A stretch of 42,356 nt of DNA, from positions 1 through 42,356 of the IMG/VR virus record IMGVR_UViG_3300019487_000011; one strand, written 5' to 3'. Below, piece by piece: positions 2,297-42,356 of the stretch. Every line of letters begins with the position of its first letter. The first letter of the stretch is position 1. The position numbers and the translations under genes are program-made. The stretch comes from a virus. The notes under the pieces were generated by a model. It saw nothing but the letters and a program-made list of their open reading frames with translations. It made no database searches and was not told the DNA's origin.

Positions 2297-4144
2297 TCAG
2301 GGGGCGGGATAACTGACCGTTGTCTCTTCACCGTCTCCCCAGTATTTGCCCGCTTTATATGAAACTCCCAAAGGCACGAACATCTTAATGCCGTATACCA
2401 CGTCCATGTACTCGTAGGTCCGGTCTAGGAAACATTCCACAACCAGTTTCCAGTATTGGTCTAGGTTGCTTTCAGGCACCAGCGCCGCCGTACTGTCGTG
2501 GACCGTATTCACCAGCCGGGCGTTTAAACCCTCGGCCTTGCAGTGCCAGAATAGGTACACCACGCTAACCGGGATAATCTCGGCTGTAGCCAAAGACTGC
2601 ACCGGGTAGTCGTAGATGGACGGGCTGTTCGTGATGTACCCGTCGTTCGTCATACGGGTATCCGGCCAGTAGAAGATCAGCCCGGTAGCGGTCCGCAGCC
2701 GCCCGGTCGCCAGTACTTCATGGCACCACCGCTCCTGCTCGGCATTCATCCCGGCGTACCGCTTACGGAACGCCTCGTAGTATTCCATTTCCCGCTTCGT
2801 GCCCTTACGGCCCCCGTACTGGGGCTTAAACGTATTTGGCTTGGCCTTCTGGCGTTGCCCCTTCGTAACCGATTCCATCGGGATACGCTCCAGCACCGAG
2901 GCCGTGAACTTGTGTACGTCGTGCCCAGACAGTACGTCCGCCAGCACTTGCTCGTCGCGGCCCAGCGAGCCTCCGACGCGCCACTCAAGCTGGGTACCGT
3001 CCGCCTCCGCGTACACGTACCCCTCGGGGGCCATGAACAGGCGCTTGTAGACCCGGGGCAGGTTCTGGAATTGGACCGCCCGTTTCTTGCCGTTCTTGAA
3101 CGTGATTGACTTGCCGGACGACGACAGGCGATGGGTCGCCACTCGCGTCTGGTTGAAGTTGGCGACAAAGTTGCCGCCCCGTTCCTCGCAGACCCACTGG
3201 AAGAACTCTACGCTCTTCGTAAGGGCCGCGTCCACCTTACCGTACTCTTTCCGCAGTTCCACGAACCGCTTCTGTTCAGGTGTGGACGCCTTGAGCTTAT
3301 CCAGCGTATCCTTGTCGGTCTTGCGCTTGCCCTTGGCTGTACGAATCGGCTCTTTGCCGTTCCGTCCGTACCGCATAAGCTCTTCGAACCCAAGGTCGTC
3401 GTAGACAAGTTCCGCAAGCTGCGGGCCCTTGAGTTTCTTCCCCTTGGCGATGGTGCTTAGCTCGCTCAGCAGTTCCGCTCGCCGCAACAGCAGGCGCTCA
3501 TACTCGACCGCTACTCGCTCTGGGTCCAGCGTCATCCCCTCGGGCTCTATGGCCGCTAGGACCGGAGTAAAAATGCAACGGGTGAACATGACCCGATCCA
3601 GCCCGGAGTCCCCGATGATCTGGACCTGTCGCTGAAACAGCTTGTACGTCTTGTTTACGTCCCATGTCACACGCTCCAGCAGCATGTGCTCGGGCATTTC
3701 GGACGGGCACACCCCACCCTTCATCAGCCGGTCGATTAGCCGCCCCTTGCTTCCCAGCCCGTACCGCTGGGCCACGCTGTCAAGGTCAAGGTCCCAGCGC
3801 CGGTTACCAGCGATGACGAACTCGGCCACCATCGTATCCCACACCAGCCAGTGTGTTGTATCGTAGCCCTGCCTGTTTAACCACGCAAGATCGAACTTGG
3901 CATTGTGGGCCACCAGCACGACGGGCTTGCCGGAATAGAACTCAAGCTGAATCTCCGCCTCCCGGCCGGTAAGTGTCAGGTCATTTAACATAACACATAC
4001 CGCCACGATCCGGTTCTCCGGCTCGCGGGCGTCCCCCTTCTCCCGGTTCGTGGTCTCAAAGTCCAACGTAAGGACCGGCCACCGGCCGTCCACGTACGCT
4101 TCCCACGGCCGGGATGCTAGGTCAAGGTACTTCGGAAAGCTCAC
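2297..4144 (-). CDS. Family A DNA polymerase with 3'-5' exonuclease domain
   Basis: 615 aa. Exo motifs are LTLDFETT and HNAKFDLAWL. Pol motif A is ADGTQLEWRV, motif B is RQKAKPNTFKPQYGG, and motif C is VHDS. Confidence 0.92.
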   Translation of the reverse strand: MSFPKYLDLASRPWEAYVDGRWPVLTLDFETTNREKGDAREPENRIVAVCVMLNDLTLTGREAEIQLEFYSGKPVVLVAHNAKFDLAWLNRQGYDTTHWLVWDTMVAEFVIAGNRRWDLDLDSVAQRYGLGSKGRLIDRLMKGGVCPSEMPEHMLLERVTWDVNKTYKLFQRQVQIIGDSGLDRVMFTRCIFTPVLAAIEPEGMTLDPERVAVEYERLLLRRAELLSELSTIAKGKKLKGPQLAELVYDDLGFEELMRYGRNGKEPIRTAKGKRKTDKDTLDKLKASTPEQKRFVELRKEYGKVDAALTKSVEFFQWVCEERGGNFVANFNQTRVATHRLSSSGKSITFKNGKKRAVQFQNLPRVYKRLFMAPEGYVYAEADGTQLEWRVGGSLGRDEQVLADVLSGHDVHKFTASVLERIPMESVTKGQRQKAKPNTFKPQYGGRKGTKREMEYYEAFRKRYAGMNAEQERWCHEVLATGRLRTATGLIFYWPDTRMTNDGYITNSPSIYDYPVQSLATAEIIPVSVVYLFWHCKAEGLNARLVNTVHDSTAALVPESNLDQYWKLVVECFLDRTYEYMDVVYGIKMFVPLGVSYKAGKYWGDGEETTVSYPAP

Positions 4145-9404: not shown

Positions 9405-10208
9405 CTAGCTTAGCCTCCCGAGCGGTTCCCAGCTATTGGCCCGCAAGCAAGCGTTAAGTACCTTACGCTCGCGCCGGGACAGTTTGCGGGGGCGCTCGTT
9501 ATCGGTCAGGTAGATAACTACCGCATCGTCCTTATATGAGCCCGTGCCCGTTTCGGTCGTGCCACGGGCCCCAAGTGTACCCGGGTAACTGTCGGACAGG
9601 TCATAGTAGCGGCTTCTCCAGTTGCCCGCGCCCGTGGTCTGATACTCGGGACAGCTCATCATGTTGGAGAGCTTCAAGCCCTTGTAGTCCCACCACTGTT
9701 TCTCGTTTACACGAAGAAACTTACCCGCCGCATCCATGACAAGAAACTTATTGTAAGACCCAACGTCCTGTCCCACAATCTCCCAAAACTCGGGCTTGTT
9801 CGCGCCCGGGGCCCCGGCAAGGGCCGTCATGGCATAGAACGCGGTATCCGACATGGCATGGCGCACGTTGCCGTAGTGCTCCCCTAGTGTCTTGTCTGCA
9901 ATGACCCCGTTATGCATGAGATACCCGCCAGCCCCCGGCAACTGGAAAGGGTGCGTATTCTCGCGGGTTATGGGCCCGTGCGTTTTCCACCGAAAATGGA
10001 CCCCTAGTTCTTTGTCCGGCAGGCCCGCCAGCATCGTTTCAATGTAGCGGGCCGGGTCCGCGCAGTCTCCGGGCATGATTTTGTGAACGGCGGGGCCCTG
10101 TTTCGTCATATACATGATGCCCGCGCCGTCCGGGTTATCTTCCCATGCGGATCGGATCAGTTCGCCGGGAATCTCGACCCCGGCAGGCTTGTGGATGATT
10201 AAACACAT
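9405..10208 (-). CDS. Class-II (Ntn-type) glutamine amidotransferase-like protein
   Basis: The N-terminus MCLI supplies a Cys2 nucleophile. Further motifs are NPDGAG, HFRWKTHG, NTHPF and LMHNGVI. Its start overlaps the amidoligase stop (TAATG). Confidence 0.8.
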   Translation of the reverse strand: MCLIIHKPAGVEIPGELIRSAWEDNPDGAGIMYMTKQGPAVHKIMPGDCADPARYIETMLAGLPDKELGVHFRWKTHGPITRENTHPFQLPGAGGYLMHNGVIADKTLGEHYGNVRHAMSDTAFYAMTALAGAPGANKPEFWEIVGQDVGSYNKFLVMDAAGKFLRVNEKQWWDYKGLKLSNMMSCPEYQTTGAGNWRSRYYDLSDSYPGTLGARGTTETGTGSYKDDAVVIYLTDNERPRKLSRRERKVLNACLRANSWEPLGRLS

Positions 10209-10951
10209 TAGCCGCTAACCCCTATTTCTTGAATGAATGCGGCCAATGTCGGCCACTCGGAACGCATGGTAACATACTGAACGTAGGATTTCCAGTCCGC
10301 GACCTTTGCCGCCGACGAGACCCGCGCCCACATTACCAGAGAATGGACGACCTCCAGATTTTTCATAACCCGGTCGGGTCGGATGGTGCCCCGAAACAAC
10401 CGCAGTTCCGCAGTATTCGGGGTCAGGTTAAGGGCCTGATAGCGGCCCGCCTCCCTGTAGGACTCGGGGACCTTGCAGTTCCGCCATTGCTTCTTTTGCA
10501 TTGCCGCCCAACGGTTGTTAGACCGTTGAGCCAGTAGTTCCATGAGCCGCAAGTTTGCGGGCTCATTGATGAAAAGGTAGAGCTTCGCAAGGGTCAGGTT
10601 CGACAAAGCCCCTCGGTTTATGTGAATGTGCATACCGCATCTTTGAGTACGAGAGCCGGACATCGCAAGGGGCGCGAGGGGCGCGAGCACTGCCCGCCAG
10701 TCGAACGCCTCTTTATGCTGTTCGATTGTCATGGGGACCGTGACAATTTCCACGCCTGCGTTTAGACTTCCATCCTCTTTGCAGAAGTAGTCATTGCGCG
10801 AGGGCAGGGCCCGCAGTATCTCAGACTGCGAGCTATGGCTCCGGGGCTCAACCTCCAATTCCACACCGAAAACAAGGGCATCGGGCCGGAACGACGGGAA
10901 CGCGCAAACAGCCTCAGCCCGCAATGAGTACCTGTGAAGGGTCATGCTCAC
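10208..10951 (-). CDS. Amidoligase (Amidoligase_2 / GCS2-glutamine-synthetase-like family)
   Basis: Motifs FGVELEV, KEDGSLNAGVEIVTVP, CGMHIHI, RYQALNL and TAELRLFRGT. The GTG start overlaps the upstream stop (GTGA). Confidence 0.8.
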   Translation of the reverse strand: MSMTLHRYSLRAEAVCAFPSFRPDALVFGVELEVEPRSHSSQSEILRALPSRNDYFCKEDGSLNAGVEIVTVPMTIEQHKEAFDWRAVLAPLAPLAMSGSRTQRCGMHIHINRGALSNLTLAKLYLFINEPANLRLMELLAQRSNNRWAAMQKKQWRNCKVPESYREAGRYQALNLTPNTAELRLFRGTIRPDRVMKNLEVVHSLVMWARVSSAAKVADWKSYVQYVTMRSEWPTLAAFIQEIGVSG

Positions 10952-11481
10952 GGCTGCGCCGTATCGGCGCGCATAATCCCGTGCGCCGCGTCAAACGGGC
11001 ACACCGGGACCTTAATGCGTAACCACTTGCGCGTAATACCCATGGTGTACCTGCACTCCGGACAGGTCACTTTGATTAAACGCGCCTCCGGGGGCTTGCC
11101 CGGGGCATGCGCGCCCACCTTTAGGGCACTGTGCGGGTACGGGGGCAGGGTTTCACAAACACGGCGGGCCCGTTCGCCTAGCGTTTCAATTTCGCCCGCA
11201 GTGGGGGCGCGATGGGTTGCGATACGCGCCGCCTCCATGACTACGGCCCGGGCGACCTCTAAAGAATCGGCCACGGTAGGGGATACGAAAATCTCCCAGT
11301 GGCCACCCTCGGACTGTGCGGGCTCGTAAGACTCAATAACGCGACCAGCCCCCCGGCCCTTGTGAGGGAAGCCTACGCTGATGTGCGTATTCTCGGGCAG
11401 GTCGGACCCGACCGGCCACCCCGCAGTAACGCGGGTAAGGCAGGCCCGAAGCCACGCCTCCCGAGTGTTGATATGTTGCAC
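10948..11481 (-). CDS. SprT-like fold protein with C-terminal zinc ribbon; HExxH motif degenerate
   Basis: 177 aa. Its architecture parallels the 13363..14046 protein (ISVGFP..EIFVSP..helix..Zn ribbon CPEC..RKW..CP). The HExxH position reads MEAAR. It is the first gene of the leftward operon. Confidence 0.6.
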   Translation of the reverse strand: MQHINTREAWLRACLTRVTAGWPVGSDLPENTHISVGFPHKGRGAGRVIESYEPAQSEGGHWEIFVSPTVADSLEVARAVVMEAARIATHRAPTAGEIETLGERARRVCETLPPYPHSALKVGAHAPGKPPEARLIKVTCPECRYTMGITRKWLRIKVPVCPFDAAHGIMRADTAQP

Positions 11482-13362: not shown

Positions 13363-14046
13363 TCAGCCGCTTTTAAACTCCGTTCCACACTTGCCGCACG
13401 TCGCCCGGAAGTCGTCCGCCGCTACCCGGGCAATAACCCCGCACTCGCAGACCCATTTACGGAGGCGCGAGCCCGAGCCGACGCCACGCGACCGGCCACC
13501 CCGGGAACCGACCCCGGCAGCACACGGACGGACGCGAGTGAGGCCGAGAATCTGGCCGAGCGTGGCCGGGGCCTGATTCCAGCTTATCACCTTGCCGTCA
13601 TCCGGGGCCGGGAGCGCCGCGAGCAAGGCGCGAAGGGCCGGGACGAACATGGCCGACTGGTAGACCGTGCCCGCCGCCTTGATATTACGGAGGCCGAGCC
13701 GTTTACACGCGGTAAGCCACTCCTTGGAGTGGCCCTTACCCTTACCGGCGACCGCGTGGCCCATTTCGTGGATCACGGTCCCGGCCAACTGAACAAGCGA
13801 TTCCTCGGCAAACGCGCATATCTCAATAAGGGCATCGTGCGAGTCATGGCCACACTCACACTGGCCCTTCGGCCCTTGCCATGCGTTGTAGTACGTGAGG
13901 CCACGGGCCCCGGTGCCGTACCCGGTGCCGTAGATCATCTTGAGCCCTGAGAGCATGGAACGCTCAGCCGGTTCCAGAACCGCGACCGAAAGGGCCGCAT
14001 CACGGACCGCGTTAATGTAATGTTCCCTTGTCATCATGCTGGCCAA
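13363..14046 (-). CDS. SprT-like zinc metalloprotease with C-terminal zinc ribbon
   Basis: 227 aa with an intact HEMGH motif followed by GHSKEW, and a C-terminal CECG...CGKCG ribbon. It is the only minus-strand gene in the rightward accessory region. Confidence 0.8.
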   Translation of the reverse strand: MASMMTREHYINAVRDAALSVAVLEPAERSMLSGLKMIYGTGYGTGARGLTYYNAWQGPKGQCECGHDSHDALIEICAFAEESLVQLAGTVIHEMGHAVAGKGKGHSKEWLTACKRLGLRNIKAAGTVYQSAMFVPALRALLAALPAPDDGKVISWNQAPATLGQILGLTRVRPCAAGVGSRGGRSRGVGSGSRLRKWVCECGVIARVAADDFRATCGKCGTEFKSG

Positions 14047-14088
14047 CTCCCGTTTAAGCTTTGACCGTGGATAGAGTATGCGCCCGTC

Positions 14089-14102
14089 TACGTCTAGACG
14101 TA
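14089..14102. promoter_or_regulatory. 14-bp perfect palindrome TACGTCTAGACGTA in a divergent intergenic region
   Basis: It lies between the SprT-like gene (minus) and the 14217 gene (plus). It overlaps the likely -35 area of the minus-strand promoter. Confidence 0.4.
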
Positions 14103-14158
14103 AGTGCTAATGTGTGATCCGGTTCACGGTTCCGATACCAGCCGCGCCTTAGCGGCGC

Positions 14159-14188
14159 TTGACCCGGGCCCGGTTCATGGGCGATACT
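14159..14188 (+). promoter_or_regulatory. Candidate promoter (TTGACC-N18-GATACT)
   Basis: It lies about 30 nt upstream of the GGAGGG RBS of 14217..14408. Confidence 0.45.
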
Positions 14189-14216
14189 GGGCCCGACTTA
14201 AACGGAGGGCGAGACA

Positions 14217-14408
14217 ATGGCCTACATGGTGCGCGACACACTGACAGGGCGAGCGGTCCGGGTCTATGCCCGGACCCGCCTGTACGAAGCTTCGGTAATG
14301 GTGGCCGAGCTGAACCGGCGCGAACTGGGCCGGTACGTGGTCAAGGGCTGGGGCGCGGATCGGATGCCGACCTTCCCCGAGCCGGTGCCTCTGTATCTCA
14401 CGGACTAG
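14217..14408 (+). CDS. Small protein, paralog family member C
   Basis: 63 aa, ATG 7 nt after GGAGGG. The motif is YMVRDTLTG...AELNRRELGRYVV. Confidence 0.65.
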   Translation: MAYMVRDTLTGRAVRVYARTRLYEASVMVAELNRRELGRYVVKGWGADRMPTFPEPVPLYLTD

Positions 14409-15065: not shown

Positions 15066-15094
15066 TTGACAAATTCCCTTAATTTTGTTATAAT
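15066..15094 (+). promoter_or_regulatory. Consensus sigma70 promoter P1 (TTGACA-N17-TATAAT)
   Basis: Exact consensus hexamers with a 17-nt spacer, set in an AT-rich patch of a GC-rich region. Confidence 0.75.
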
Positions 15095-15126: not shown

Positions 15127-15348
15127 GTGCAGGAAGTGAGCGACCACGGGCCTCGGGACTCCCTAGGGGTCGCCCGAGGCGAGACTCCGAAGGAGTCGAG
15201 CGGTCCGGTCCCGCTCGACTCCTTCGGAGTCTCGCGGAGGGAGCCGAAACGTCGTAAACCGGCCTTTAAGTGGGCCCTACGTAGGGTTAAGTACTACGGC
15301 GGTATGAAAGTACCCAGTTTCTTGCAGAAACCACTTGACAGAACCTAG
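15127..15348 (+). CDS. Questionable 73-aa basic ORF downstream of P1
   Basis: GTG lies 6 nt after AAGGAG. However, the ORF contains the 25-bp perfect hairpin and runs into P2, so it may be non-coding. Confidence 0.25.
   Translation: MQEVSDHGPRDSLGVARGETPKESSGPVPLDSFGVSRREPKRRKPAFKWALRRVKYYGGMKVPSFLQKPLDRT
15150..15235 (+). other. Structured element: 8-bp hairpin plus perfect 25-bp stem / 7-nt loop, containing three GACTCC-N3-GGAGTC-type palindromes
   Basis: 15179-15203 pairs perfectly with 15211-15235, and 15150-15157 pairs with 15173-15180. The palindromes lie at 15157-15171 (imperfect), 15183-15197 and 15217-15231. No U-tract follows. Confidence 0.9.
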
Positions 15349-15363
15349 GCCCTGTGGTATAAT
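15335..15363 (+). promoter_or_regulatory. Consensus sigma70 promoter P2 (TTGACA-N17-TATAAT)
   Basis: Exact consensus, about 40 nt upstream of ATG 15404. Confidence 0.75.
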
Positions 15364-15403: not shown

Positions 15404-16018
15404 ATGGCCTACGCTAAGTTTACGTTCTTTGAGGCGGCTACCCAGCACGGGTTCGTCATGGCTTGCATGTCGGACAAGGTGCAGAAGTCCCGGGAGTTCC
15501 ACCAGATCATCATTGACCCCACCCGGGGTCGGGTGTTCCAGTTGTTCAAGTCCCGGGACCCGGAGCGTCCGTTCTTCGAATACGTCATCCCCGAGCGGTT
15601 GATGACCGAATCGAACTACATGTGGCGAGCCAAGGTCAAAGGGGAGCTTGAAAAGCTATGGGGCAAGATGCTACGGGAGAGGGCGAAGGCCCGCTCGACG
15701 GGACCGGAGGGCCCCTGTGGACCGGACACTACGGTTCCCTCCGAATCTCAGCCCTTGAGCCCTTCTGCATCATCGACCGATGCGCTGCCGAAGTCGGAGT
15801 CCTTGAGTTCCGAGTCCGAGGGGACGGTACCCGCTCCGCAGGGCTCCGGCCCCGGGCCATCGACCCCGGAATTCTCGCCAACCGGGCCAGCTTCTTCACT
15901 GGCCTCCGAGCTTCCATCGCAGAAGTCGGGGTCAAGGTCCCGATCCTCGTCTGGGGCATCAAAGGCAAGCTCTGGCTCCGCTACGGCGCGAGCCGGGTCC
16001 ACGCCTGCGAATGGCTAG
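15404..16018 (+). CDS. Hypothetical protein; globular N-terminal ~100 aa, then a Ser/Pro-rich tail overlapping the ParB-like frame
   Basis: 204-aa ORF. The C-terminal half is low-complexity and overlaps ORF 15658..16194 by 361 nt in another frame. Confidence 0.5.
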   Translation: MAYAKFTFFEAATQHGFVMACMSDKVQKSREFHQIIIDPTRGRVFQLFKSRDPERPFFEYVIPERLMTESNYMWRAKVKGELEKLWGKMLRERAKARSTGPEGPCGPDTTVPSESQPLSPSASSTDALPKSESLSSESEGTVPAPQGSGPGPSTPEFSPTGPASSLASELPSQKSGSRSRSSSGASKASSGSATARAGSTPANG

Positions 16019-16194
16019 GGATTGACCGGATTCCGGCCATCCTTTGCCTGTATGACGCCCACGTACCGACCGGATTCCTTTGCCTCCGGGAGCTAAAGAC
16101 CCCCGGGGAAGTCCTAGAGGCGTTTAACGCCCGGGAAGTGGGACATTTCGTCGTAGATCACGAAAAGATCGACGCGCACCGCATGGAGCCTTAA
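15658..16194 (+). CDS. ParB/Srx-like nuclease-domain protein
   Basis: LRASIAEVGVKVPILVW..GK.WLRYGASRVHACEWLGIDRIPAI fits the ParB N-terminal domain pattern (PI.V ... G..R..A ... G...IPA). The true start is uncertain. Confidence 0.6.
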   Translation: MGQDATGEGEGPLDGTGGPLWTGHYGSLRISALEPFCIIDRCAAEVGVLEFRVRGDGTRSAGLRPRAIDPGILANRASFFTGLRASIAEVGVKVPILVWGIKGKLWLRYGASRVHACEWLGIDRIPAILCLYDAHVPTGFLCLRELKTPGEVLEAFNAREVGHFVVDHEKIDAHRMEP

Positions 16195-16200
16195 GGGGGC

Positions 16201-16229
16201 TTGACAAAGCCCGGTTCGTGTAGTATACT
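16201..16229 (+). promoter_or_regulatory. Near-consensus promoter P3 (TTGACA-N17-TATACT) upstream of the tRNA array
   Basis: It lies immediately after the ParB-like stop. It is the last recognisable promoter before the tRNA array and late genes. Confidence 0.7.
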
Positions 16230-16544
16230 GGCTCCATGATCTGGTTAATCGTTCTTTGCGGCATCGTCTGGCTCGGTCTCCGAGAGGCGGTGAACCTGAC
16301 TTAGGTCCGGGTGGAGCGGCGGCCCCGGGTCCTTTGAGTTGGCCCGGCCACGGTCCGTCCTCCCCTCCCGGCTGGGTACAACCGGCCCCCGGGGCTCCCC
16401 CGTGGGGCCGCCTATTCTGGGCTTGTGCGGAAGGCCGCATGGCTCCCTTGCGCGGAAAAGAGGACCTATAGGGGCCCCTATGATCTAGCCGTACGCCGCG
16501 ACCGATATTTAAAATACGGGACCTAATAGGTCCACCAATTCTAC

Positions 16545-16615
16545 GCCACTGACGCTGCGGAGCGTCCCGGTCTCCAAAACCGACAGATGGGGTTCGACTC
16601 CCTACAGTGGTGCCA
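16545..16615 (+). tRNA. tRNA-Trp (CCA)
   Basis: Acceptor GCCACTG/CAGTGGT. Anticodon loop CTCCAAA (CCA at 16574-16576). T-arm TGGGG-TTCGACT-CCCTA. Encoded CCA. Very short D-arm with loop GCGG. Confidence 0.6.
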
Positions 16616-16657
16616 AACGTCAGCCGCTAGAGACGTACCCGAAAGGGCCTTGCAACT

Positions 16658-16742
16658 AGCGGACCTATATTGCGGTCGGTCCAGTGACCGACAGGGGCTC
16701 ATAACCCCAGTTAGCCGGGAGCGTCACCCGGGGCCGCTACCA
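16658..16742 (+). tRNA. Aberrant tRNA-like element with CAU anticodon loop (Met/fMet/Ile2-type?)
   Basis: Acceptor AGCGGAC/GGCCGCT (6 of 7 pairs). Anticodon arm GGGG-CTCATAA-CCCC (CAT at 16700-16702). T-arm CCGGG-AGCGTCA-CCCGG. A73 plus CCA. There are 10 nt instead of 2 between the acceptor and a 5-bp D-stem. Confidence 0.3.
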
Positions 16743-16749
16743 AGTTTAT

Positions 16750-16822
16750 GCGGATACGCACAAGGCGTGTCGTCCGCCTTCTAAGCGGTGCAGTAGGGGT
16801 TCGATTCCCCTTATCCGCTCCA
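16750..16822 (+). tRNA. tRNA-Arg (TCT), copy 1
   Basis: Acceptor GCGGATA/TATCCGC. Loop CTTCTAA (TCT at 16780-16782). T-arm AGGGG-TTCGATT-CCCCT. Encoded CCA. Confidence 0.7.
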
Positions 16823-16825
16823 ATT

Positions 16826-16896
16826 CTCCCGAGCGCCGAGCGCACGGACCGCTTCTAACGGTCTGGGGCTAGGTTAGATTCCTAGGCGGGAGGCCA
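16826..16896 (+). tRNA. tRNA-Arg (TCT), copy 2
   Basis: Acceptor CTCCCGA/GCGGGAG. Anticodon stem GACCG/CGGTC with loop CTTCTAA (TCT at 16854-16856). T-arm CTAGG-TTAGATT-CCTAG. Minimal D-arm. Encoded CCA. Confidence 0.55.
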
Positions 16897-16900
16897 AAAT

Positions 16901-16976
16901 CGCCGTGGCCCGAGGGACTTCGGGGCACAGTTTACGAAGCTGTAGCGCGTAGGCTCGACTCCTACCACGGTGGCCA
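16901..16976 (+). tRNA. tRNA-Arg (ACG)
   Basis: Acceptor CGCCGTG/CACGGTG. D-arm CCGA-GGGACT-TCGG. Loop TTACGAA (ACG at 16934-16936). T-arm GTAGG-CTCGACT-CCTAC. Encoded CCA. Confidence 0.7.
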
Positions 16977-16977
16977 A

Positions 16978-17052
16978 GCCCTTGTAACCTTAGTGGCAGA
17001 GGCTCTGTCTTGTAAACAGAGTGCCGGGGTTCGATTCCTCGCGGGGGCTCCA
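16978..17052 (+). tRNA. tRNA-Thr (TGT)
   Basis: Acceptor GCCCTTG/CGGGGGC. D-loop TAGTGGCAG. Anticodon stem TCTGT/ACAGA with loop CTTGTAA (TGT at 17011-17013). T-loop TTCGATT. Encoded CCA. Confidence 0.8.
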
Positions 17053-17056
17053 ATTC

Positions 17057-17131
17057 GCGTTCATAGCTGAGACGGATTAGCGAGGGTCTGAAAAGCCCTA
17101 GAGCGTGGTTCGATACCACGGGAACGCACCA
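17057..17131 (+). tRNA. tRNA-Phe (GAA)
   Basis: Acceptor GCGTTCA/GGAACGC. TA plus D-arm GCTG..AGC with GG. Loop CTGAAAA (GAA at 17090-17092). T-arm CGTGG-TTCGATA-CCACG. Encoded CCA. Confidence 0.85.
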
Positions 17132-17136
17132 ACTAC

Positions 17137-17213
17137 GCCTCCGGGCGCGTCTGGTAGACGTGAACGGACTGTCGATCCGATGTAGGAGGGTTCGATTCCC
17201 TTCGGAGGCGCCA
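17137..17213 (+). tRNA. tRNA-Asp (GTC)
   Basis: Acceptor GCCTCCG/CGGAGGC, perfect. D-loop CTGGTAG. Loop CTGTCGA (GTC at 17171-17173). T-loop TTCGATT. Encoded CCA. Confidence 0.8.
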
Positions 17214-17218
17214 AATTT

Positions 17219-17291
17219 GCCCGGTGTCCCTAGTGGGCAGGAAGCTCTTACAAAGCATCCGTGCAGGGAGCGTAACCTTGACTGGGTACCA
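17219..17291 (+). tRNA. tRNA-Val (TAC), non-canonical T-loop
   Basis: Acceptor GCCCGGT/ACTGGGT. Loop CTTACAA (TAC at 17249-17251). T-arm CAGGG-AGCGTAA-CCTTG, with no TTC. D-arm CCC-TAGT-GGG. Encoded CCA. Confidence 0.5.
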
Positions 17292-17295
17292 GACA

Positions 17296-17374
17296 GTGGT
17301 GTGGTAAGGCGATATAGCTGAGCCGTGCGGTTGTGACCCGCAGATACAGGGTGCAAGTCCCTGACCTCACCCCA
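17296..17374 (+). tRNA. tRNA-His (GTG)
   Basis: Anticodon arm TGCGG-TTGTGAC-CCGCA (GTG at 17333-17335). T-arm CAGGG-TGCAAGT-CCCTG. C73 plus CCA. Acceptor has one mismatch. The D-region is unusually long. Confidence 0.55.
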
Positions 17375-17379
17375 AATAC

Positions 17380-17454
17380 GCATCGCTGGTGTCAAAGCAG
17401 CATGACCGGCTCTTACCCGGTACGGTGTAGGTCCAAGTCCTACGCGATGCACCA
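17380..17454 (+). tRNA. tRNA-Lys (CTT)
   Basis: Acceptor GCATCGC/GCGATGC, perfect. Arm ACCGG-CTCTTAC-CCGGT (CTT at 17412-17414). T-arm GTAGG-TCCAAGT-CCTAC. D-loop lacks GG. Encoded CCA. Confidence 0.65.
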
Positions 17455-17455
17455 A

Positions 17456-17529
17456 CACTAGATGACCGAGCGGCTAGGCCGCGCCCTGCAAAGGCGCGTA
17501 CCCGGGTTCGAATCCCGGTCTAGTGTCCA
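17456..17529 (+). tRNA. tRNA-Cys (GCA)
   Basis: Acceptor CACTAGA/TCTAGTG, perfect. Arm GCGCC-CTGCAAA-GGCGC (GCA at 17488-17490). T-arm CCGGG-TTCGAAT-CCCGG. Encoded CCA. Confidence 0.85.
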
Positions 17530-17534
17530 ATACG

Positions 17535-17567
17535 GCTTCGCCGTCTCAGACGCGAAGCGTCTTTTAT
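17535..17567 (+). terminator. Terminator-like hairpin + U-tract inside the tRNA array
   Basis: GCTTCGC(C)GTC-TCA-GACGCGAAGC forms 7+3 bp with one bulge, followed by GTCTTTTAT. It lies in the only long spacer (38 nt) of the array. Confidence 0.45.
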
Positions 17568-17644
17568 GCCCCGCTGACGGAATTGGCATACGTACCTGTC
17601 TTAGAAACAGGGTTTTCCGAGTTCGACTCTCGGGTGGGGTACCA
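17568..17644 (+). tRNA. tRNA-Leu (TAG) with short variable region
   Basis: Acceptor GCCCCGC/GTGGGGT. D-loop GAATTGGCATA. Arm CCTGT-CTTAGAA-ACAGG (TAG at 17602-17604). Only a 5-nt variable region. T-arm CCGAG-TTCGACT-CTCGG. A73 plus CCA. Confidence 0.65.
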
Positions 17645-17648
17645 ATAT

Positions 17649-17722
17649 CTCTGGCTGGCCTAATGGCTGGGCACGTGCTTTGGGAGCACGGGATAGGGGT
17701 TCGATTCCTCTGCTGGAGACCA
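17649..17722 (+). tRNA. tRNA-Pro (TGG)
   Basis: Acceptor CTCTGGC/GCTGGAG. D-arm GCCT-AATGGCT-GGGC. Arm CGTGC-TTTGGGA-GCACG (TGG at 17681-17683). T-loop TTCGATT. Encoded CCA. Confidence 0.85.
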
Positions 17723-17726
17723 ATTT

Positions 17727-17798
17727 GCGGGCGCCGCAAGGCGCGACGACACGTTGCCAACGTGACCGACTGGGATTCGAGTTCCCTCGCCCGCTCCA
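17727..17798 (+). tRNA. tRNA-Gly (GCC)
   Basis: Acceptor GCGGGCG/CGCCCGC, perfect. Loop TTGCCAA (GCC at 17756-17758) on a 4-bp stem. T-arm GGGA-TTCGAGT-TCCC. Reduced D-arm. Encoded CCA. Confidence 0.6.
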
Positions 17799-17802
17799 AT
17801 TT

Positions 17803-17879
17803 GCACCTATCGTCTACGTTAGCTAGGATGCTGGGCTTTCACTCCGGCTAACAGGGGGCAGCACCCTGTAGGTGTACCA
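17803..17879 (+). tRNA. tRNA-Glu (TTC), non-canonical T-loop
   Basis: Acceptor GCACCTA/TAGGTGT. Loop CTTTCAC (TTC at 17838-17840). T-arm CAGGG-GGCAGCA-CCCTG. D-loop lacks GG. Encoded CCA. Confidence 0.55.
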
Positions 17880-17884
17880 AGATC

Positions 17885-17968
17885 GTAGTGCTAGACCGCT
17901 ATGGAGACGGGACCGGCTGTAACCCGGTCGCTTCGGCCCTCTAGGTTCGATTCCTAGGCACTGCACCA
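17885..17968 (+). tRNA. tRNA-Tyr (GTA), class II
   Basis: Acceptor GTAGTGC/GCACTGC. Arm ACCGG-CTGTAAC-CCGGT (GTA at 17919-17921). 12-nt variable arm with a GC-TTCG-GC hairpin. T-arm CTAGG-TTCGATT-CCTAG. Encoded CCA. Confidence 0.85.
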
Positions 17969-17973
17969 ACTAT

Positions 17974-18051
17974 TCCGCTCTAGCTCTCAAGGTGAGAGCA
18001 ACTGGCTGTTAACCAGTATGGAGGGTGGTTCGATTCCACCGGGCGGAGCCA
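17974..18051 (+). tRNA. tRNA-Asn (GTT)
   Basis: Acceptor TCCGCTC/GGGCGGA. TA plus D-arm GCTC..GAGC with GG. Arm ACTGG-CTGTTAA-CCAGT (GTT at 18008-18010). T-arm GGTGG-TTCGATT-CCACC. Encoded CCA. Confidence 0.85.
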
Positions 18052-18055
18052 ATTC

Positions 18056-18133
18056 CGGGGTCTGAAGGGAACAGGCAGACCTACTTGGCTCAAACCCAAG
18101 TGTTTCCGGGTTCGACTCCCGGGGCCCCGACCA
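18056..18133 (+). tRNA. tRNA-Leu (CAA) with short variable region
   Basis: Acceptor CGGGGTC/GGCCCCG. Arm CTTGG-CTCAAAC-CCAAG (CAA at 18091-18093). 5-nt variable region. T-arm CCGGG-TTCGACT-CCCGG. A73 plus CCA. Confidence 0.6.
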
Positions 18134-18211
18134 TTAAGCTGTGGGTTGCTGGTATCCCACTCGCGCTCTGAACGCGGGACCACGTAGGTTCAAATCCTAC
18201 GCTTACCGCCA
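18133..18211 (+). tRNA. tRNA-Gln (CTG)
   Basis: D-arm TGGG-TTGCTGGTAT-CCCA. Arm TCGCG-CTCTGAA-CGCGG (CTG at 18168-18170). T-arm GTAGG-TTCAAAT-CCTAC. Encoded CCA. Acceptor pairs 1-72 and 2-71 are mismatched, and the 5' end abuts or overlaps the previous CCA. Confidence 0.7.
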
Positions 18212-18216
18212 ATTCT

Positions 18217-18308
18217 GGAAGAGCAAGCCAACTGGCGATGGCACCCGTCTTGAAAACGGACGAGCCCTAACACGGCCTTGAAGGTTCAACTCCATTCCTC
18301 TTCCGCCA
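18217..18308 (+). tRNA. tRNA-Ser (TGA), class II
   Basis: Acceptor GGAAGAG/CTCTTCC, perfect. D-arm GCC..GGC with GG. Loop CTTGAAA (TGA at 18251-18253). Long variable arm of about 20 nt. T-loop TTCAACT. Encoded CCA. Confidence 0.8.
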
Positions 18309-18314
18309 AACAAT

Positions 18315-18388
18315 GCCCGAGTCGTCCAATGACAGGACAAGCGGCCGATTACCGCTGAATGTGGGTTTGATTCCTACCTTGGGTACCA
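18315..18388 (+). tRNA. tRNA-Ile (GAT) with unusual anticodon loop
   Basis: Acceptor GCCCGAG/CTTGGGT. D-arm GTCC-AATGACA-GGAC. Arm AGCGG-CCGATTA-CCGCT (GAT at 18347-18349), with C at position 33 and T at 37. T-arm GTGGG-TTTGATT-CCTAC. Encoded CCA. Confidence 0.6.
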
Positions 18389-18392
18389 ATTT

Positions 18393-18791
18393 ATGACGGA
18401 CCACGAAGAGAAGCCTGTAATCAAGCGCGAAGGTGGACGCTTCGTCAAGGGCCAGAGCGGCAACCCTGCCGGTCGGGCCAAGGGCACGAAGAACAAGATC
18501 ACCCTCGCACGGTTGCTGCTGGAAGAGCAGCTTCGGGACGCTCTGGCTAAGAGCGGCCCTAAGCTCATGCAGCAGGCAATCAAGCAAGCCCTCAAGGGCA
18601 ATGACCGCATCATGCGGGTGTTGCTCGACAAGATGCTGACGACCCCGCGTGACGCGCAGGAGTCGGATAACCAAGACCGCGAAATTAACGTCGTGGTCCA
18701 GAATCTGGTCACCGACCAGTCGGCCAAGCCGAAGCTGATCGAGGGCGAGAAATCGGTTCGTGTTCCCGTAACCATCCCCATCAAGGACTAA
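18393..18791 (+). CDS. DUF5681-type protein (small terminase subunit candidate)
   Basis: 132 aa. The FVKGQSGNPAGRAKGTKN motif is typical of DUF5681 proteins found upstream of large terminases. The ATG lies 4 nt after the last tRNA CCA. Confidence 0.6.
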   Translation: MTDHEEKPVIKREGGRFVKGQSGNPAGRAKGTKNKITLARLLLEEQLRDALAKSGPKLMQQAIKQALKGNDRIMRVLLDKMLTTPRDAQESDNQDREINVVVQNLVTDQSAKPKLIEGEKSVRVPVTIPIKD

Positions 18792-39919: not shown

Positions 39920-40248
39920 TTCAGCCTCCCTTCCACCCTAAGCTGACGGGCGATCAGGTCGGCCTCAAGCTGTTCCTGTAGCTTGTATGCCCGGTGCTGA
40001 TCCAGCAGGCCGAAGCAGTGGTACCGCACGAAGTCCAGTGCCCCCATGACCCACATGAGCGGGGTCGTGCCGGTTGAGGCAGTAAGTACCGTGTTTGGCT
40101 TCCCGTTCGGGCTGTACGCCACCGTCAGGTGCTCGATGCCCGGGGCCGCCTCCAGCAGGGCCCGAGCGAGGCGCGTAGCCTCGTTCTCGGCGGGCGGGCC
40201 GGCAGGGGCCGACTCTTCGCCCGGCACTACGATCTTATGTTCCGTCAC
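39916..40248 (-). CDS. Hypothetical protein
   Basis: The GTG at 40248 overlaps the upstream stop (GTGA) and follows GGAGAAGG. 110 aa. Confidence 0.5.
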   Translation of the reverse strand: MTEHKIVVPGEESAPAGPPAENEATRLARALLEAAPGIEHLTVAYSPNGKPNTVLTASTGTTPLMWVMGALDFVRYHCFGLLDQHRAYKLQEQLEADLIARQLRVEGRLN

Positions 40249-40958
40249 TTTACCTTCTCCCTTGAACCGTCGAACCAGCCGCCGCAGCCCAAGCACCGGA
40301 GGCGCTGAATGATGAAGGCACGGGTACGACGGGACCCCCGGGCCTGTGTCTTGGCCGACTGGCATCGCGGGCAACTGTCTCGGCCCGTGTTCTCGCCCAA
40401 GAACGGATGATTGCGAATGAACGGGCGCAGGACCTTGTAGGCCCGCTCGGTCAGGTTAATGTCCCCAGCGTTGTAGCGGAGCATCTTTCCCCACGCCCGC
40501 TCGTCGCCCTCGTCGCAGGCCCGCCACAGCGGGAACCCGGCGTTGGCGATCTTCCGGCCGATCTTCGCCACGATAGCTAAGAACTCCAAACGGTTGCTGA
40601 TGTACCCCAGCTTCCGTACCGTCTTGATAAGGTCAATAGACGTTACGGGCGGCAACGGAGGCAGGCCGTTGGCCAGCAGTTCGCCGTTGATCTTCGGAAT
40701 GTCGAACTTGTCGCCGTTGTAGCTCACCACGGCGTCCGCCTCTTCGATCAGGTCACGAAGCTGGCGCAGCATGGCCTTACGGCCCCCGCGCTCGTCAGCC
40801 TGAGTGGTCCCTCTCTGGCCGAGCCACTTGGCCCCCCAGCAGATGATACGGGGCGCTTCGATAAGCTGGTTGAGGCCCATCGTTTCGTCCCATAGCTTCC
40901 AGATGTAAGCCTTACCGGCCATCGTCTCAATGTCCACCGTCAGAATCTTCGGCTTCAT
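40245..40958 (-). CDS. RNase H-fold 3'-5' exonuclease (DnaQ-like) with C-terminal zinc ribbon
   Basis: Motifs ILTVDIETM (DxE), VSYNGDKFDIP, and a CPRC...CLGC ribbon. Confidence 0.75.
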   Translation of the reverse strand: MKPKILTVDIETMAGKAYIWKLWDETMGLNQLIEAPRIICWGAKWLGQRGTTQADERGGRKAMLRQLRDLIEEADAVVSYNGDKFDIPKINGELLANGLPPLPPVTSIDLIKTVRKLGYISNRLEFLAIVAKIGRKIANAGFPLWRACDEGDERAWGKMLRYNAGDINLTERAYKVLRPFIRNHPFLGENTGRDSCPRCQSAKTQARGSRRTRAFIIQRLRCLGCGGWFDGSREKVK

Positions 40959-42200: not shown

Positions 42201-42343
42201 AGCAGCCCCACCAGAATAGCCACTCCCAACACGACCATCAGCCCAGAAAGGGGCGTGACAGTGCCGTACAAAGCTACGTCACAGACCGCAGCGGCAAGGC
42301 CGCAGCCTGCGATACCTAGGCCGTACTTCACGTTACGTTTCAT
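42197..42343 (-). CDS. 48-aa membrane (possibly lipo-) protein spanning the contig junction
   Basis: MKRNVKYGLGIAGCGLAAAVCDVALYGTVTPLSGLMVVLGVAILVGLL. Its ATG overlaps the endonuclease I stop (seen at 107-110 in the other repeat copy). It is below the ORF-track cutoff. Confidence 0.5.
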   Translation of the reverse strand: MKRNVKYGLGIAGCGLAAAVCDVALYGTVTPLSGLMVVLGVAILVGLL

Positions 42344-42356
42344 CGCAGCCACTCCT
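42234..42356. repeat. Direct terminal repeat, copy 2 (identical to 1..123)
   Basis: Exact 123-bp identity with the start of the window. Confidence 0.95.

Follow-up and report, generated by a model that had tools for sequence, protein, structure and literature searches.

We analysed the whole of IMG/VR virus record IMGVR_UViG_3300019487_000011 (42,356 nt; hereafter the window) and found that positions 16545-18388 hold a genuine phage transfer RNA (tRNA) cassette: 22 cloverleaf units arranged head-to-tail, all on the plus strand, which we class as 17 clear tRNAs, four divergent ones and one doubtful one. Together the units represent 19 amino-acid specificities, with Ala absent. The array measures 1844 nt (83.8 nt per gene; 11.9 tRNAs per kb; 4.4% of the genome), an encoded CCA stands at the 3' end of 22/22 units, the base that follows is A in 20/22, and the spacers are 0-6 nt long at 19 of the 22 junctions. 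An original prediction, made from the sequence alone, had called for 22 plus-strand tRNA-like genes of about 84 bp each, a template-encoded CCA on every gene, anticodons for every amino acid except Ala, and more than 4% of a small genome given over to tRNAs, all of which our analysis bore out; the accompanying claim of 0-6 nt gaps with CCA-A at the joins stood for the 19 short junctions and the 20 following As, and failed at gaps of 7, 38 and 55 nt. We think it rather probable that the array is an acquired, self-promoted cassette that lets the phage go on translating after host tRNAs have been depleted or cleaved. We infer this function from the observed anatomy of the array, its genomic context, its presence in one lineage, the relatedness of its tRNAs to those of large phages and its match to phage codon usage; the reading presumes that the array is expressed, processed and aminoacylated and that the phage benefits.

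Units were called with ARAGORN at default and at relaxed (-ps80) settings and with Rfam covariance models, and were folded to their minimum free energy (MFE) structures. In addition, we used a threading control in which CCA-ending candidates were fitted to the cloverleaf and compared with 150 CCA-ending sites picked at random from the rest of the window. The units, together with the two longest spacers, are:

16545-16615, plus strand: tRNA-Trp (CCA), G73, CCA end; Rfam RF00005 32.2 bits, above gathering score; ARAGORN -ps80; threading 15.2
16616-16670, plus strand: 55-nt structured spacer; folds into a 7-bp stem CCGCTAG/CTAGCGG around a small hairpin
16671-16742, plus strand: CAT unit (Met, fMet or Ile2), the least certain; MFE cloverleaf with ensemble frequency 0.55; threading 13.6 against a control maximum of 11.3
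16750-16822, plus strand: TCT tRNA (reads AGA/AGG) with a tRNA-Gly-type body; ARAGORN default; Rfam 34.7 bits
16824-16896, plus strand: tRNA-Arg (TCT), second copy, T loop TTAGATT; ARAGORN default; MFE cloverleaf
16901-16976, plus strand: tRNA-Arg (ACG), low-scoring, 6-bp D stem; ARAGORN -ps80; Rfam tRNA-Sec model 21.3 bits; threading 17.8
16978-17052, plus strand: tRNA-Thr (TGT); ARAGORN default; Rfam 49.0 bits
17057-17131, plus strand: tRNA-Phe (GAA); ARAGORN default; Rfam 45.4 bits
17137-17213, plus strand: tRNA-Asp (GTC), 6-bp D stem; ARAGORN default; 38.2 bits with the tRNA-Sec model
17219-17291, plus strand: tRNA-Val (TAC), non-canonical T loop AGCGTAA; ARAGORN -ps80 as sole detector; MFE cloverleaf; no Rfam match
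17298-17374, plus strand: tRNA-His (GTG), encoded G-1 opposite C73, T loop TGCAAGT; ARAGORN default
17380-17454, plus strand: tRNA-Lys (CTT), T loop TCCAAGT; ARAGORN default; Rfam 44.9 bits
17456-17529, plus strand: tRNA-Cys (GCA), U73; ARAGORN default; Rfam 46.4 bits
17530-17567, plus strand: 38-nt spacer, hairpin followed by TTTT; MFE -14 kcal/mol, z = -2.8; no call by the terminator scan
17568-17644, plus strand: tRNA-Leu (TAG), short form of 77 nt; ARAGORN default; Rfam 49.3 bits
17649-17722, plus strand: tRNA-Pro (TGG); ARAGORN default; Rfam 49.6 bits
17727-17798, plus strand: tRNA-Gly (GCC)-derived unit, truncated D arm, weakest cloverleaf; ARAGORN -ps80 as sole detector; no Rfam match; threading 12.0
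17803-17879, plus strand: tRNA-Glu (TTC), non-canonical T loop GGCAGCA; Rfam local search 23.5 bits, E 0.005, below gathering score
17885-17968, plus strand: tRNA-Tyr (GTA), long variable arm; ARAGORN default
17974-18051, plus strand: tRNA-Asn (GTT); ARAGORN default; Rfam 50.3 bits
18056-18133, plus strand: tRNA-Leu (CAA), short form of 78 nt; ARAGORN default; Rfam 37.4 bits
18134-18211, plus strand: tRNA-Gln (CTG); ARAGORN default (as 18133-18211); threading
18217-18308, plus strand: tRNA-Ser (TGA), long variable arm; Rfam RF01852 49.2 bits; ARAGORN -ps80
18315-18388, plus strand: tRNA-Ile (GAT), anticodon loop CCGATTA; ARAGORN default; Rfam 43.2 bits; threading

Run over the entire window at default settings, ARAGORN called 15 tRNAs, every one on the plus strand and within 16750-18388. 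Rfam returned 11 matches at the gathering score and 12 with permissive filters, and contributed two units that default ARAGORN had not listed, Trp-CCA (16545-16612) and Ser-TGA (18217-18304), the latter picked up by the tRNA-Sec model on account of its long variable arm; Asp, Asn and Arg-ACG likewise matched the Sec model because of their 6-bp D stems. The two detectors combined recognized 17 of the 22 units by the standard tRNA criterion. With 12 units at or above the covariance-model threshold and the anticodons still diverse, we saw neither the scarcity of matches nor the collapse of specificities that the original prediction had named as its own refutation. The five weaker units (Arg-ACG, Val-TAC, Gly-GCC, Glu-TTC and CAT) occupy the gaps between confident genes exactly. 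Relaxed ARAGORN recovered Arg-ACG, Val-TAC and Gly-GCC in register with their neighbours, and local Rfam searches, which gave zero matches for Val-TAC, Gly-GCC and the CAT unit, gave scores for Glu-TTC and Arg-ACG that lie under the 29-bit threshold. The CAT unit drew no call from ARAGORN at default or -ps80 settings or from Rfam, and was identified by folding and threading. Since relaxed ARAGORN made 0.89 false calls per kb per strand in the window outside the array and is therefore weak by itself, we turned to the threading control, in which the 22 units scored 12.0-20.6 and the 150 control sites averaged 5.95 (sd 2.5; maximum 11.3), so that all 22 units outscored every control site. The MFE folds of the CAT, Val-TAC and second Arg-TCT units were also cloverleaves. 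Based on register, CCA, threading score and, for Glu and Val, homologues, the five sub-threshold units are best termed tRNA-like. Two relaxed ARAGORN calls in the leader upstream of the array (Thr-GGT at 16215-16292; Glu or Ala at 16416-16503) lacked CCA and varied between runs, and were rejected.

Each of the 22 units threads onto a cloverleaf whose acceptor stem has 7 bp, whose anticodon and T stems have 5 bp each and whose anticodon loop has 7 nt, and stem pairing across the array is about 95%. Position 33 is U in 21 of 22 and position 37 is a purine in 21 of 22, Ile-GAT being the sole and unusual exception to both (C33, U37). Discriminator bases mostly suit the anticodons by the textbook rules for E. 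coli: U73 on Gly and Cys; G73 on Asp, Asn, Gln, Ser and Trp; A73 on Phe, Lys, Leu, Pro, Tyr, Val, Ile and Met; and the G-1/C73 combination on His. The T loop is canonical (T54-psi55-C56, purine 57, A58) in 14 of 22 units, the deviant loops being those of the CAT unit (AGCGTCA), Val (AGCGTAA), Glu (GGCAGCA), His (TGCAAGT), Lys (TCCAAGT), second Arg-TCT (TTAGATT), Arg-ACG (CTCGACT) and Ile (TTTGATT). The D arms are defective in Gly-GCC and in the CAT unit. The CAT unit further combines its non-canonical T loop and compact D arm with a mismatched 1-72 pair and G-C pairs at 29-31/39-41, whereas in the Gly-GCC unit the 7-bp acceptor stem is perfect, position 73 is U (U73) and the T loop reads TTCGAGT. 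Gln-CTG abuts or overlaps the CCA of Leu-CAA, and the top of its acceptor stem is weak. Neither tRNA-Leu gene has the long variable arm that is usual in bacterial tRNA-Leu; at 77-78 nt, both are short.

The first TCT tRNA carries a Gly-type acceptor (G1-C72, C2-G71, G3-C70, U73) and shares 81% identity with the tRNA-Gly(TCC) of Aeromonas phage AhP_Mru1 (locus L083, 3446-3519), with the anticodon changed from TCC to TCT. It probably derives from a Gly-UCC tRNA, and could be either a Gly-charged reader of AGA/AGG or a remoulded Arg tRNA. No blastn similarity was found between the two TCT tRNAs, and the second is therefore not a recent duplicate of the first. As for the spacers, the stem of the mini-helix in the 55-nt spacer (16616-16670) repeats GCCGCTA, the 3' acceptor strand of the CAT unit, and this spacer may be a tRNA remnant or a processing element. 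The 38-nt spacer (17530-17567) divides the array into 12 + 10 units and looks like a weak terminator, attenuator or processing site.

Next, we compared the array with the codon usage of the phage, whose GC content at third codon positions (GC3) is 0.73. Wherever a box has two codons, the array supplies the G34 or C34 tRNA, matched to the codon that the phage itself uses more often (AAG, 83% of Lys; CAG, 79% of Gln; NNC, 66-83% of their boxes). The four-codon boxes of Thr, Val, Leu, Pro and Ser are each served by a U34 tRNA, the broadest decoder, and the CGN box by ACG. The earlier claim that many of the tRNAs decode A/U-ending codons that would be rare in a GC-rich host is not supported in the form given: the two-codon-box tRNAs read C/G-ending majority codons and the U34 tRNAs belong to four-codon boxes. 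By standard wobble the set reads 67% of the phage's codons; the share rises to 72% if U34 also reads U, and to 80% (85% for the capsid gene) under superwobble, in which an unmodified U34 reads all four codons of a box. Uncovered are Ala, GGR, CGG, AGY, AAA, CAA, UUA and AUA. The set thus looks like a broad supply of about one tRNA per amino acid and not like a rare-codon patch.

Several array tRNAs have recognizable counterparts in other phages. Stenotrophomonas phage Moby has a tRNA-Phe that, taken with the ATTC spacer before it, matches the one in the array at 84% identity; the two differ by compensatory changes in acceptor pairs 5:68 and 6:67, and both arrays place Phe and Asp side by side. 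Over 55 nt, Leu-TAG shares 85% identity with one of the short, 77-nt tRNA-Leu genes in a T5-like Aeromonas phage; the first TCT tRNA also resembles a tRNA of a T5-like phage; Ser-TGA is about 75% identical to the tRNA-Ser of T5-like phages, and Glu-TTC can be aligned over its full length with annotated tRNA-Glu genes from large phages (71-76% identity). Val-TAC had no match in the cultured-phage collection. Its 17-nt T arm (CAGGG-AGCGTAA-CCTTG, with A54 G55 C56 G57 U58; 17268-17284) recurs exactly in two viral contigs: L208 (39% GC; 14265-14281), where it belongs to a Val-TAC tRNA with compensatory acceptor changes, and L209 (36.9 kb; 1908-1924), where it belongs to a Trp-CCA tRNA. Default ARAGORN listed neither of these units. 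Similarly, the His T arm (CAGGG-TGCAAGT-CCCTG, with G55; 17346-17362) has exact copies in Ala, Met, Trp, His and Lys tRNAs of unrelated viral contigs (L258, L259, L263, L267, L276 and L280), and in the 146-kb contig L276 it again sits in a His tRNA. This recurrence argues against decay and for regarding the odd T arms as constrained variants, and the array tRNAs appear to belong to a phage tRNA pool that is under structural constraint. We found no single donor array with the same gene order. Among other matches, the 13 IMG/VR hits to the CAT-unit T arm and 19 of 21 hits to a Val T-arm 15-mer were chance occurrences in coding DNA and were discarded, and the His-T-arm 17-mer also matches another recurrent, non-tRNA motif in AT-rich contigs. 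In L208, at about 13440-14204, tRNA-like halves (5' GCCCCAA..., 3' ...TTGGGGTACCA) lie about 700 nt apart with a reverse-strand open reading frame (ORF) between them, which may represent an intron-containing tRNA.

The window derives from metagenome contig ENA ERZ27251177 (42,374 bp), which was seen in one sample. Positions 1-123 are identical to 42234-42356, as expected of a circular assembly or of direct terminal repeats, which implies a complete genome whose unique sequence amounts to about 42.2 kb. Along its whole length, array included, the GC content stays at about 60%. A minus-strand block encodes polymerase A, a separate exonuclease subunit, DnaB, primase and exonuclease, and a plus-strand block encodes DUF5681, terminase, portal, capsid, tail and lysis genes; the viral hallmarks are the terminase large subunit, portal and major capsid protein. 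PHROG and Pfam scans of the phage turned up no RNA polymerase, integrase, tRNA-repair, CCA-adding or other translation gene. The phage looks podovirus-like: its capsid protein shares about 30% identity with capsid proteins from cyanobacterial podoviruses with genomes of about 42 kb, and its polymerase about 40% with those of VpV262-like phages. The cultured-phage collection contained no near-identical phage and no close relative. The features that flank the array are:

15658-16194, plus strand: ParB-like gene (weak match), left edge of the slot that holds the array; homologues lie beside the same slot in related contigs L001, L003 and L108
16201-16229, plus strand: predicted sigma-70 promoter TTGACA-17 nt-TATACT, 11/12 consensus matches; 7 nt past the ParB-like stop codon and 316 nt upstream of tRNA 1
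16236-16544, plus strand: GC-rich structured leader; MFE -142.4 kcal/mol, z = -2.6 against shuffles
18393-18791, plus strand: DUF5681 gene, the first after the array; start 4 nt past the last CCA, with terminase, portal and capsid genes downstream

Three consensus-grade sigma-70 promoters were predicted on the plus strand, facing the array and late genes (15066-15094, 15335-15363 and 16201-16229), and those at 15066 and 15335 match the consensus at 12/12 positions with an extended -10 TG; shuffled sequence yielded 1.9 such sites over the 8 kb scanned. The site at 16201-16229 is likely the array's promoter. The array thus lies downstream of the top sigma-70-like promoters and directly upstream of the late genes, the placement that had been proposed for it. 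The 309-nt leader contains short GGACCTAT-type hairpins and, at its 5' end, a hydrophobic 22-codon ORF.

We then sought relatives in IMG/VR, GTDB genomes and JGI metagenomes with the major capsid protein and the terminase large subunit. IMG/VR and the JGI metagenomes each gave more than 590 capsid matches, which makes this a large family. When 36 + 19 + 10 + 24 related loci were scanned with ARAGORN, two tRNAs were found altogether, and the searches revealed no sister genome with the array: the closest long relatives, with capsids 78-80% identical, are without it, and the 89%-identical relatives are contigs of 1.8-3.2 kb that end short of the slot. In L001 and L003 (capsid 78% identical), the slot holds three small protein-coding genes and gave zero RNA family matches. 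In L108 (41.6 kb; capsid 80% identical), it holds one tRNA-Gly(CCC) at 1831-1904 and an ORF at about 2010-2700, whose product we guess, from reading the translation, to be Ntn-hydrolase-like. L108 was binned with a Pyrinomonadaceae metagenome-assembled genome, the sole clue to the host. L108 and L001 retain the two upstream promoters and have no third one and no equivalent after the ParB-like gene; at the position of the third promoter, L001 has a strong terminator with a 12-bp stem. As the slot holds other cargo in these relatives and the third promoter is missing from L108 and L001, we take the array and its own promoter to be a lineage-specific acquisition in a cargo hot spot, a slot of variable content that separates the early/regulatory genes from the late structural operon.

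How might such a cassette work? We propose that host RNA polymerase would initiate at 16201-16229 and transcribe the array as one precursor, which the internal 38-nt hairpin may attenuate; as we see no convincing terminator beyond the array, read-through into the late genes is probable. Host RNase P would cleave the 5' end of each tRNA, and with CCA encoded and spacers mostly 0-6 nt long, exonucleases would have few bases to trim to complete the 3' ends. The resulting pool would supply about one tRNA per amino acid, with G34/C34 species fitted to preferred codons and U34 or I34 species as broad decoders in four-codon boxes. With its own tRNAs for 67-80% of codons, the phage could continue late protein synthesis despite loss of host tRNAs, whether to tRNA-cleaving defence nucleases or to infection-induced shut-off. 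The unusual T loops, D arms and one anticodon loop may also make the tRNAs poor nuclease substrates; a contact-dependent inhibition toxin that cleaves the T loop is known. Replacement of depleted or cleaved host tRNAs by phage tRNAs has been described (PMC10264068, PMC11555353), and by this analogy translation autonomy or counter-defence seems the most plausible purpose of the array.

Several observations weigh against this reading. Standard detector thresholds leave out 5 of the 22 units; 8 of the 22 T loops are without T54-psi55-C56, which decay, and not adaptation, could explain; Ala, the most-used amino acid (11% of codons), is uncovered; two tRNAs carry TCT although AGA makes up 0.2% and AGA + AGG 0.6% of phage codons; and no close relative has the array, hence its persistence over time is not demonstrable.

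The classical account of phage tRNAs (PMC10264068, PMC13015707) is compensation for codon bias, in which the phage carries tRNAs for codons commoner in itself than in its host and thereby makes its late proteins faster. As this account would have it, the array lies directly upstream of the late genes and points the same way, and the lone Gly-CCC tRNA of L108 resembles spot compensation. (GGG is a frequent Gly codon outside the reach of the window array, and it is a CCC anticodon that the L108 tRNA bears.) Yet a set of nearly one tRNA per amino acid is not a few rare-codon species, its two-codon-box members duplicate C/G-ending decoders that are presumably abundant in a host of about 60% GC, and it gives two tRNAs to the scarce AGA while frequent Ala, GGG and CGG codons go uncovered. 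We therefore regard codon compensation as an unlikely explanation of the set.

Somewhat less likely still, in our estimate, is that the array is a recent capture now decaying as a passenger, a part of a larger phage's tRNA region copied into the slot by recombination, with many dead units and little benefit to the phage. Such an origin would suit its absence from every relative, the five sub-threshold units, the truncated D arm of Gly, the aberrant CAT unit and the two mismatches atop the acceptor stem of Gln. It would also suit the enrichment of non-canonical T loops, which among default ARAGORN calls number 4/15 here and 5/85 in large-phage arrays (Fisher p = 0.027). On the other hand, decay does not sit easily with stems paired at about 95%, CCA on 22/22 units, nearly all anticodon loops canonical, a dedicated consensus promoter and a GC content equal to that of the phage; nor does it fit the recurrence of two odd T arms, base for base, in clear tRNAs of unrelated phages, which indicates constraint, or the failure to find one donor array of the same order. 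Finally, misjoining of a foreign tRNA region during assembly, conceivable for an array unique in its family and known from a single metagenome contig in one sample, is very improbable given the exact gene-to-gene fit (promoter 7 nt after the left gene; right gene 4 nt after the last CCA), flanking gene order as in the relatives, uniform GC, and a contig that closes with a 123-nt overlap at a length a few kb above relatives of 37-41.6 kb.

Within the favoured interpretation, an acquired cassette that sustains translation when host tRNAs fail, we tentatively put forward a more specific idea, which we hold to be possible but doubtful: the array may be a portable translation-rescue cassette, self-promoted and ORF-free, whose near-minimal set of partly non-canonical tRNAs was drawn from a phage pool that detectors under-call and that was shaped for nuclease escape. 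Among the non-canonical features meant here are the A54-G55-C56-G57-U58 and U54-G55 T loops, D arms that are longer or shorter than usual, Leu tRNAs of the short form and the Gly body with an Arg anticodon. If this were true, a 42-kb phage could spend 4% of its genome to make itself in large part independent of the host tRNA pool.

The array is of a known type and is an outlier in genome size and density. Felix O1-like myoviruses (Ounavirinae, e.g., Shigella phage Sf14) and T5-like siphoviruses (Demerecviridae) are virulent phages that, like the window, carry a broad co-oriented set, with 25-26 tRNAs for about 19 amino acids in one region (PMC12482277; table in PMC13015707); the Felix O1-like phages have 25-26 tRNAs in 86-90 kb, and Sf14 covers 19 amino acids. 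However, the genomes of these two groups measure 86-122 kb and their clusters extend over several kb with small ORFs inside, whereas the array of the 42-kb window is ORF-free and nearly spacerless. Stenotrophomonas phage Moby (Menderavirus, 159 kb) shares with the window the homologous tRNA-Phe, the 4-nt spacer upstream of it, the Phe-Asp adjacency and, in its three aligned tRNAs (Tyr, Phe and Asp), encoded CCA, but its other tRNAs are only generically similar, its gene order differs, and its array includes ORFs and an Ala tRNA. In the survey of Morgado and Vicente 2019 (PMC6409571), viral clusters, defined by at least 15 tRNAs at a density of at least 2 per kb, occurred only in genomes of 72-617 kb and at about 2-10 tRNAs per kb. 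By that definition the window has a cluster, whether the 15 default ARAGORN genes in 1.64 kb or the 22 units in 1.84 kb are counted, but its genome (42 kb) falls below the size range of the survey and its density (11.9 per kb) lies above. Phages of 40-50 kb usually have 0-3 tRNAs (table in PMC13015707), and our search, in which collections could not be queried directly by tRNA count, turned up no comparable set, published or in a database, from any genome smaller than 50 kb.

The nuclease-evading tRNAs of cluster C1 mycobacteriophages and T5 (PMC10264068, PMC11555353) likewise belong to a broad set in an apparently virulent phage and, as in the Ile loop CCGATTA and several T loops of the window, carry substitutions at normally invariant positions. 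In the window, by contrast, the deviations lie mostly in T loops and D arms and not in anticodon loops. The composition of the set has a parallel outside phages. Mitochondria and Mollicutes decode with a minimal set of roughly one tRNA for each amino acid, in which U34 tRNAs serve the four-codon boxes and one ACG (inosine) tRNA serves CGN. The window set is built along these lines but is incomplete (no Ala; GGR, CGG, AGY, AAA and CAA unread), and the phage still needs host tRNAs and all host synthetases.

Large tRNA sets are deemed a trait of big phages, and the window is an exception to that size rule. A complete 42-kb genome with 4.4% tRNA, among relatives that are nearly tRNA-free, suggests that the benefit of such a set can outweigh tight packaging limits, and related genomes with and without the array offer a natural contrast for learning what phage tRNAs do. 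As 5 of the 22 units are missed at standard thresholds and odd T arms recur in viral contigs, surveys may undercount phage tRNAs.

Two further observations concern the minus-strand genes. Amidoligase and adjacent class-II glutamine amidotransferase-like genes lie at 9405-11481 and 13363-14046 (minus strand), with two phrog_6361/SprT-like proteins nearby, and this neighbourhood looks like a module of the peptide-modification type among the early genes. The DNA polymerase is apparently split between 40245-40958 and 2297-4144 (minus strand), the 3'-5' exonuclease subunit (phrog_403, E 3e-64) being a distinct gene that lies, measured across the contig ends, about 3.6 kb from the gene for the polymerase domain.

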